Positions 37,384 to 39,023 of a stretch of 64,000 bases of DNA are shown here, piece by piece. This stretch comes from a phage. The notes under the pieces are model-generated. The model was not told the origin of the DNA. It did not search any database and worked only from the letters and a program-made list of their open reading frames with translations. The stretch lies in sequence record PZ583743.1; one strand, 5' to 3'. Each line of letters starts with the position of its first letter. The stretch's first letter is position 1. The position numbers and the translations under genes were made by a program.

Positions 37384-38163
37384 TTAATTAAAAATATATA
37401 CTTCATCAGTTCCATTCTTTTCTTTGGAATGATATATGTTAAAGACGTATTTTTTATTAAGATGCTTAACATTATATTTTTTAGACCATTCTTTAAGAAG
37501 AGTGTTTTCCTTTCCGTGATGCTCTAAAACATTCGACAGTCCAAATTTTATTCCTCTGTCATTTAAAGAATCTAAAAGATTTAAAAGGTCTTTTTCTTCT
37601 TCTTCTGACCAAAATTTATTATAATCAGCAACTGTTATAAGATATGGAGGGTCCACATATACAAAATCGCCGTCTAGAATTTTGACATCTTTAAAATGCA
37701 ATGAACTAAAGATTATTTTATCACAATTTTGTTTAAAGTGATTAAAGCGTTTTTCACTATTTTTGTTTATAGTTCTTTTTCCAAACGGAGTAGTAAAATT
37801 TCCTTTATCGTTTATACGAATCATATTACTAAACCCGTGAAAATGAAGAACATAAAGTAAAAGAGGATCTCTAGTTTTATTATAATCTTCACGTAATTTC
37901 AAAAACTCTTCTTTTGATGTTTTTGATAGTTTGTATTGCTTTATTACTTTTAAAACGTCATCCCATGATACATTAATAAGACGCTTATACATTTCAATAA
38001 TTGGTTCTTGAATATCATTGGCCAATACAGGACCATTGACGTTCAAAGACACTGATAAACCTCCACAAAATAAATCCACGAATCTGTCATATTTTGGAAA
38101 GTGAGGCTTAAGTTCAGGTAATAATGATTGTTTATTACCTGTATACGCGATAGCTCCTAGCAT
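37384..38163 (-). CDS. dam: Dam DNA N6-adenine methyltransferase (GATC)
   Basis: 259 aa as in T4 Dam; DPPY catalytic motif (VDPPYLIT); N-terminal SAM-binding FxGxG-like region. Confidence 0.9.
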
Positions 38164-38723
38164 TATATTCTCTCATTTATTGCAGCAAAAAACGAATTAT
38201 ATAATTCTTCATCATATGTATTTGATAGTAATACTAACACGTTTTGTGATTTAGCATATTCATTAAACCTTGCTTGGATGGTTGGATTATCAGTAAATGA
38301 TTCTCTTTTTGTCCATTTATTACGTGGATAATATCCGCATGGCAAAAAATCTAATATCATCAATGACACAGGGTTTTCAGTTTTTGTGTATTCTTTTAAT
38401 TTCTCTTTATCTTCTAAATATATTCCAACCGAATCAATAGCTGTACCTCCACCAACTTGGTGTTTAATTTCAATTATATGCTTTTTACCGTTGCGAGAAA
38501 TAACAATATCAAATCTTCTAGTACGCTTCTTAGTTATAAAATTAGAACAAAACAAATTATTTGATTTTTCAGTATCATCGGTTAAAACCATTTTTTCTTG
38601 ATAACTAACTGAACAATCAGTGAAATATTCTTTTACTTTATTAAGTATGAAATTTTCAACTACGGCAGATATTTTATATGAATCTCCGTTTAAAGCCATT
38701 TCATGCACAATTTTATTAATCAT
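38163..38723 (-). CDS. Hypothetical protein (186 aa) with PD-(D/E)xK nuclease-like motif, translationally coupled to dam
   Basis: ORF track; [21 protein letters not shown] fits the hydrophobic-D ... E-x-K core; TAATG overlap with dam ATG; early promoter upstream. Confidence 0.5.
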
Positions 38724-38746
38724 TATATCATCCTCAGCAATTTATT

Positions 38747-38777
38747 TTATAATACCATAACAAGCTGAGAAAGTAAA
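38747..38777 (-). promoter_or_regulatory. Early promoter upstream of the 186-aa ORF / dam operon
   Basis: Plus-strand ataatacc...gtaaac. Confidence 0.45.
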
Positions 38778-38822
38778 CAAATTTATGAAATTTGTGATAA
38801 ATATTAATTTAAAGGAGGACAT

Positions 38823-39023
38823 ATGGCACAAAAATTAATGGCACTTGTTAATGCCATCAAAGGTAATAAGAAACGTATAGCTTTTACTATTTCTGCTATG
38901 GTAGGAATTTTACTCTGGAACTTTATTTTATCACCAATTGCAATTGCGCATGGTGTTAATATTCCAGTAGTTACTCTTGATACATTCGTAGATCTAGCAT
39001 TTGCTTTAGTTGGGTTAATTTAA
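38823..39023 (+). CDS. Small membrane protein (66 aa) on the opposite strand
   Basis: Strong SD AAAGGAGGA 6 nt before ATG; hydrophobic segments; sits in a gap between convergent minus-strand genes. Confidence 0.5.
   Translation: MAQKLMALVNAIKGNKKRIAFTISAMVGILLWNFILSPIAIAHGVNIPVVTLDTFVDLAFALVGLI

Follow-up and report, generated by a model that had tools for sequence, protein, structure and literature searches.

A compact PD-(D/E)XK nuclease-like gene paired with dam in T-even phages: a candidate restriction-modification cassette

The window analyzed here is a stretch of 64,000 nt of the Tequatrovirus record PZ583743.1, and coordinates refer to the whole of this stretch unless another locus is named. 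The region around its dam gene is laid out as follows:

36805-37338, minus strand: gene 56, dCTPase (ORF list and Pfam).
37384-38163, minus strand: dam, a D12-class N6-adenine (GATC) DNA methyltransferase of 259 residues (Pfam D12 methyltransferase, E = 6.5e-51).
38163-38723, minus strand: ORF186, a compact PD-(D/E)XK nuclease-like protein of 186 residues (predicted fold, conservation and profile matches).
38823-39023, plus strand: ORF66, a conserved small membrane protein gene (PHROG 2024), neighbor to the cassette described below and not a component of it.
39020-40048, minus strand: gene 61, primase (ORF list and Pfam).

ORF186 lies directly upstream of dam, as the first-pass annotation of this DNA had reported, and the A at 38163 is shared between the two genes in the sequence TAATG, which contains both the TAA stop codon of ORF186 and the ATG of dam. 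The encoded Dam matches T2 Dam (M22342) with 100% identity and T4 Dam with 98.8%, and the segment from dam to gene 61 shows 100% identity with Yersinia phage vB_YepM_ZN18 and Escherichia phage a51. ORF186 is not a chance reading frame, since it maintains 186 codons at 35% G+C and has been kept in 164 phage records, including relatives with 41-43% identity. On the 3' side of gene 56 (36605-36805, minus strand), another 66-residue ORF occupies the place where T4 (L001 1107-1781) carries the GIY-YIG homing endonuclease gene segF, which is a further presence/absence difference at the same locus.

ORF66 had been described as an opposite-strand membrane protein gene with a near-perfect Shine-Dalgarno sequence, and this description holds: GGAGG is found 4 nt ahead of its ATG, and the protein is hydrophobic at about residues 19-42 and again at the C-terminus. 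It occurs in 693 phage records of the T-even type, T4, T6 and Mosigvirus included, and is convergent with the primase gene throughout. Its sequence is 95% identical in T4 (L001 3239-3439, plus strand; unannotated in NC_000866 and MT984581), identity falling to 52-56% in Mosigvirus and 31% in a T4-like contig of metagenomic origin; W32-N33, P38, G44 and P48 are invariant. A search for a late promoter upstream of ORF66 found no TATAAATA, only GATAAATA. ORF66 is a real, independent conserved gene; the idea that it is part of the module was discarded, as it accompanies genes 56 and 61 with or without the cassette, including in T4, T6 and Mosigvirus, which are devoid of ORF186.

Alignment of the locus to T2, T4 and T6, which the first-pass annotation had proposed as a check, revealed three states: the cassette is present in T2, only dam is found in T4, and the site is empty in T6. 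Both T6 and Mosigvirus JK42 contain neither dam nor ORF186 and have the order gene 56, ORF66, gene 61. Comparison with these empty sites defines the following features:

37385-38811: cassette of dam, ORF186 and leader, about 1.43 kb, extending from the dam stop codon to just short of the ORF66 ribosome-binding site.
38243-38250, plus strand: first copy of the 8-bp direct repeat TTTGTGAT, flanking the 548-bp T4 deletion.
38791-38798, plus strand: second copy of the same 8-bp repeat, at the other side of the deletion.

Both genes are found in about 149 Tequatrovirus records, corresponding to the state of T2 and the window, dam alone in about 33 (the T4 state), and neither gene in about 320 (503 ORF66-bearing Tequatrovirus-level records minus 184; the T6 state). 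Relative to the window, T4 is missing 548 bp between the two TTTGTGAT repeats, including a putative promoter and the first 158 or so codons of ORF186, so that only the last 28 or so codons at the 3' end of the gene remain upstream of dam. The same endpoint is found in T4, T4T and the natural isolates G8, CE1, F1 and Elenatom, and the deletion is therefore a natural allele. The lone dam gene of T4 is the result of this 548-bp deletion in ORF186 and its putative promoter. The first-pass annotation knew of no T4 gene in the interval between dam and gene 61; this is right for ORF186, but the unannotated ORF66 and the 3' remnant of ORF186 are present there.

A shorter allele of ORF186 exists as well. 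In T2 the protein has 181 residues, 5 fewer than in the window, with the last 3 residues different; it ends in NSFLLQ, 13 nt before dam, because a T-run differs by one base. This ending recurs in the T4 remnant, which derives from the 181-residue allele; more distant homologs end like the 186-residue form. The allele is located at:

L004 2001-2546: 181-residue allele, phage T2.
L002 2294-2839: 181-residue allele, phage 107.
L001 3140-3202: remnant in T4.

Because it is deleted in T4 and about 30 relatives, shortened in T2 and absent from most Dam-encoding phages of other genera, ORF186 must be considered dispensable.

The signals upstream of ORF186 are these:

38731-38735, minus strand: Shine-Dalgarno sequence GAGGA of ORF186, 7 nt before the ATG.
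38749-38777, minus strand: putative early cassette promoter TTTACT-17-TG-TATTAT, a match to the sigma-70-like consensus within the segment deleted in T4.
38835-38860, minus strand: terminator-like hairpin followed by a T-run.

An early promoter belonging to the gene pair had been placed at about 38747-38777. The consensus match is indeed there, but such matches are no more common in the region than in shuffled sequence (10 found versus 11.9 expected), so that a cassette promoter at this position is no more than plausible. The terminator-like hairpin is situated inside the 5' end of ORF66, where some GenBank records annotate a terminator, and could stop gene 61 transcripts ahead of the cassette promoter. 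Upstream of the putative -10 element, CUCAGC (about 38763-38770) can pair with a GCUGAG that overlaps the ORF186 Shine-Dalgarno sequence. Only RNA reading through from gene 61 would be predicted to fold in this way (38731-38770, minus strand) and occlude the ribosome-binding site, as is known from several T4 genes; the predicted hairpin was not retained as a feature, being no better than those of shuffled sequences (z = -1.67).

ORF186 belongs to a tiny family, comprising ten clusters among 5.8 billion proteins. Its sole strong match in the profile libraries was PHROG 8706, which has no assigned function; below threshold, it matched Pfam DpnII, Pfam BanI and the PADLOC profile REase_II (E = 9e-5). 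An exhaustive HMMER search of 1.84 billion representatives returned 11 proteins, namely the ORF186 family, with P0011 and P0013 as distant members, and two low-complexity matches; DpnII was not reached at database-wide E-values in this search. Sequence searches of the PDB, with phmmer and with a profile, gave nothing even at E = 10, NCBIfam produced noise only, and the single strong match in BFVD was the MX01 orthologue. No GIY-YIG or HNH domain was matched in Pfam or PHROG, which distinguishes ORF186 from the seg and mob homing endonucleases.

An AlphaFold model of ORF186 (pLDDT 80.7, pTM 0.80) displays the order alpha-beta-beta-beta-alpha-beta, and every match found with it by Foldseek in the PDB is a PD-(D/E)XK nuclease. 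Orthodox type II restriction enzymes head the fold and profile matches, and the weaker fold matches include the homing endonuclease I-Bth0305I and the resolvase RecU. In the model, Glu23 is located in helix 1 (residues 15-33), Asp72 in strand 2 (residues 67-77), and Glu85 and Lys87 in strand 3 (residues 80-88). E23, R69, D72, E85, K87, H88, Q89, D125 and residues G93-T-A-I-D-S98 do not vary among nine homologs with identities down to 29%. The predicted protein thereby combines the core fold with a conserved acidic residue in strand 2 and a conserved (D/E)xK in strand 3, which are the hallmarks of the PD-(D/E)XK class. ORF186 is accordingly modeled with a restriction-endonuclease fold and an intact E...D...ExK site, in which Glu23, Asp72, Glu85 and Lys87 are the putative catalytic residues of an equally putative cleavage activity. 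The PD-(D/E)xK core originally noticed in the sequence corresponds to residues 69-89, and its assignment stands; a characterized non-nuclease T-even protein, or the lack of such a fold, had been named as grounds for abandoning it, and ORF186 turned out to be neither the one nor to show the other.

These data also bear on whether ORF186 might be a decayed or noncatalytic relic, such as a regulator of dam that binds DNA, or a gene in the process of being lost. The protein is small and lacks half of DpnII, the gene has been lost in T4-type phages without a known phenotype and is truncated at its C-terminal end in T2, and hundreds of phage dam genes do without it. Homologs that otherwise share only 29-63% identity nevertheless have all four catalytic-type residues and a 17-residue core unchanged, and about 150 genomes carry the ORF intact. 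We therefore regard such a relic as very unlikely.

The relationship with DpnII was explored in both directions. The Pfam DpnII profile (PF04556) aligned residues 28-113 of ORF186 with profile positions 152-235 of 278 at E = 0.0045 and 16.8 bits, which is below the Pfam gathering cut-off of 23 bits; it matched four of nine members of the ORF186 family, the best at 8.3e-5. Scanning the genome collection for DpnII-type loci with an alignment of T-even Dam proteins found nothing. The comparison set consisted of 782 ORFs from 80 bacterial loci around DpnM-type methylases, for which a DpnM sequence served as the probe. When these were searched with an HMM of the ORF186 family, the top 30 or so hits were ORFs of about 300 residues downstream of the methylase genes, the best having an E-value of 6.5e-8, as compared to 0.034 for the best hit in a reversed-sequence control. 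Five of these ORFs were scanned against Pfam DpnII and scored between 1e-85 and 1e-109, identifying them as members of PF04556. Conversely, an HMM of 34 DpnII-type ORFs searched against the 242 stop-to-stop ORFs of the window retrieved ORF186 alone, at 3.8e-6, with the next hit at 0.29. Alignment of the two families by hhalign placed residues 13-113 of ORF186 on residues 160-258 of DpnII with a probability of 72% (E = 3.5e-5).

Both proteins have a glutamate in the helix, the motif RRFD(I/V), and a motif consisting of a hydrophobic residue followed by E-x-(K/N)-x-x-x-GGG. The latter is part of the DpnII strand-end motif LIETNYYgGGGSKLKSV, to which a 17-residue strand end in ORF186 corresponds; the residues E-I-K in ORF186 take the place of E-T-N in DpnII, so that the specificity of DpnII is not simply transferable to ORF186. 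The alignment is restricted to the central 100 or so residues of DpnII, and the N-terminal 150 or so residues of the latter, which may serve dimerization or site recognition, are without a counterpart in ORF186. Given the HMM matches in both directions, the hhalign result and the shared motifs, the sequence of ORF186 is distantly related to the catalytic core of DpnII, but does not make it a family member in the Pfam sense.

All homologs with readable flanks have the ORF186 gene directly upstream of a gene for a D12/Dam-class methylase. Such a gene is found directly downstream in the window, T2, KPV15, P0006, P0009, P0011 and P0013; the adjacency was observed in all six independent homolog contexts and about 149 Tequatrovirus records. 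More distant cases are:

P0006: 57% identity to ORF186; adjoins dam at the same locus between gene 61 and dam.
P0009: 49% identity; overlaps the methylase gene by 4 nt.
Klebsiella phage KPV15: 41-43% identity; overlaps the methylase gene by 7 nt; located between rIIB and topoisomerase, another genome position.
P0011: 32% identity; overlapping methylase gene.
P0013: 29% identity; overlapping methylase gene, with a topoisomerase-like gene adjoining.

In the phage collection, dam and ORF186 are contiguous in 149 records, which equals the 155 full-length ORF186 matches minus 6 Klebsiella phages beyond the reach of megablast, an agreement by counts. ORF186 and dam act as one insertion/deletion unit, found at two genome positions in T4-like phages. 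In KPV15 (L003 2075-2602), an ORF with the annotation 'endonuclease' is found two genes upstream of the cassette of nuclease and dam genes. The methylases of the homologous pairs are better conserved, with identities of 52-72% versus 29-57% for the nucleases.

The depth of this linkage is relevant to another reading, according to which ORF186 is an active nuclease with a different job or specificity, such as a homing-type or structure-specific enzyme that spreads the dam cassette among T-even genomes in the same infection, or one acting in repair or recombination, with Dam as a passenger. Presence/absence polymorphism and the second genome position do resemble the behavior of mobile T-even endonuclease cassettes, and I-Bth0305I and RecU are among the weaker fold matches. 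However, a linkage with Dam that persists, with gene overlap, down to 29% identity argues for a joint function, the best fold and profile matches are to orthodox type II restriction enzymes, and the better conservation of the methylases is expected of a cognate pair under conflict. This reading appears unlikely to us.

What we favor instead, with a probability of roughly 60%, is that ORF186 and dam constitute a compact type II restriction-modification cassette of virulent T-even phages. The first-pass annotation had suggested a restriction-modification-like, methylation-sensing or anti-defense module; the strict adjacency to Dam in six of six contexts bears out the first of these, and nothing specific spoke for the other two. 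Given that the GATC specificity of T2 and T4 Dam is established, the cassette is, by analogy, probably specific for GATC. Under this proposal, ORF186 and dam would be transcribed together early from the cassette's own promoter and would be translationally coupled, so that the methylase would be made whenever the nuclease is made. ORF186 would be a methylation-sensitive, GATC-specific type IIP endonuclease produced early along with its protecting methylase, and its targets would be DNA in the infected cell without GATC methylation, such as that of dam-less co-infecting phages or dam-deficient hosts. The phage's own DNA would be shielded by Dam as well as by glucosyl-hydroxymethylcytosine (hmC). 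Selfish maintenance of the cassette might be an additional role.

Because the enterobacterial hosts are Dam+ and the hmC of T-even DNA is glucosylated, the obvious substrates of ORF186 would be protected. Relative to expectation, no other 4-bp palindrome in the 64-kb window is nearly as scarce as GATC: a Markov model predicts 219 sites and 81 are present (ratio 0.37), and TCGA comes second with a ratio of 0.61. This depletion fits with GATC being a liability, but is not specific evidence, since it is common among enterobacterial phages.

In an alternative that reverses the role of methylation, ORF186 would need or read the Dam mark, like DpnI at fully methylated or MutH at hemimethylated GATC, and would cut or nick the marked cytosine-containing DNA of the host while sparing the phage's own glucosyl-hmC DNA. 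Coupling to Dam is equally compatible with this, and the DNA of Dam+ hosts would provide an obvious substrate. The sequence kinship of ORF186, however, is to the DpnII family, whose members are blocked by methylation and do not depend on it, and a Dam of the phage's own would be needless in Dam+ hosts, which makes this alternative rather improbable. It shares with the relic and the enzyme with another job that it is less consistent with the data than a restriction-modification pair, because of, respectively, the DpnII kinship, the invariant active site and the depth of the Dam linkage.

A bolder extension of the restriction-modification proposal is that ORF186 is a weapon of phage against phage. 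It would then cut GATC free of N6-methyladenine even in hmC DNA, for example in the unglucosylated hmC fraction of T2- and T6-type genomes, and in mixed infections dam-less relatives would be destroyed or converted by phages with the cassette. We consider this improbable. If true, it would supply a reason for T-even Dam, contribute to the approximately 2.7-fold depletion of GATC, and give T-even marker exclusion a further mechanism, based on restriction.

Among the known systems closest to the cassette are the DpnII/MboI-type restriction-modification systems (PF04556), which have a D12-class GATC methylase as a partner and a catalytic core homologous to that of ORF186, with a PD-(D/E)XK fold; this fold class includes enzymes that leave 4-nt 5' overhangs. 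There are also differences. The DpnII family enzymes have about 285-307 residues as opposed to 186, the N-terminal 150 or so residues being found only in DpnII. In the phage cassette, the gene for the nuclease precedes that for the methylase and overlaps with it, whereas in streptococcal DpnII loci the endonuclease is encoded about 1.4-1.8 kb past the end of the methylase gene. Finally, DpnII systems are bacterial, and the ORF186 cassette resides in a virulent hmC phage. T4 Dam, 98.8% identical to the Dam of the window and likewise encoded between genes 56 and 61, is an orphan, whereas the window, T2 and about 149 records keep the partner gene. With MunI/EcoRI-class type IIP enzymes, ORF186 has 13% sequence identity, at which no sequence-level relationship was detected, and the recognition elements cannot be equated. 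The chlorovirus pair R.CviAI/M.CviAI offers a parallel, in that a lytic virus encodes both an endonuclease and a GATC adenine methylase, as would be the case with ORF186 and dam; chlorovirus host DNA, however, is unmethylated and degraded, whereas the enterobacterial hosts of ORF186-bearing phages are Dam+.

To our knowledge, the benefit of Dam to T4 has never been clear, and T4 Dam is the standard orphan phage methylase. Most of ORF186 was already contained, unannotated, in the 1988 T2 dam entry M22342 (L093 190-627). The gene is labeled "putative DpnII restriction endonuclease" in GenBank entry MZ502379 of phage Shinka and 'hypothetical' in nearly all other records, and a full-text literature search found no functional study of it. 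One passing sentence in a 2026 paper flags the gene as nuclease-like, and a 2025 review (PMC12707154) lists T4 Dam among the orphan methylases. What is new, beyond a gene flagged before in annotation, is the pairing of a minimal, DpnII-related, predicted endonuclease with Dam in virulent T-even phages.

That the nuclease-like gene and dam travel as one cassette suggests that the textbook "orphan" methylase of T4 is the remnant of a restriction-modification pair, a corollary that would be surprising to specialists. If so, the orphan state would be documented as the loss of an R gene through one microhomology deletion. The 186-residue DpnII-related enzyme would represent a minimal scaffold for a GATC endonuclease, and its bearers would be a rare case of virulent hypermodified phages with restriction activity, with a possible role in competition between phages. 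Should the partner endonuclease be active, the part of Dam would be protection, within a restriction-modification cassette that happens to be broken in T4.
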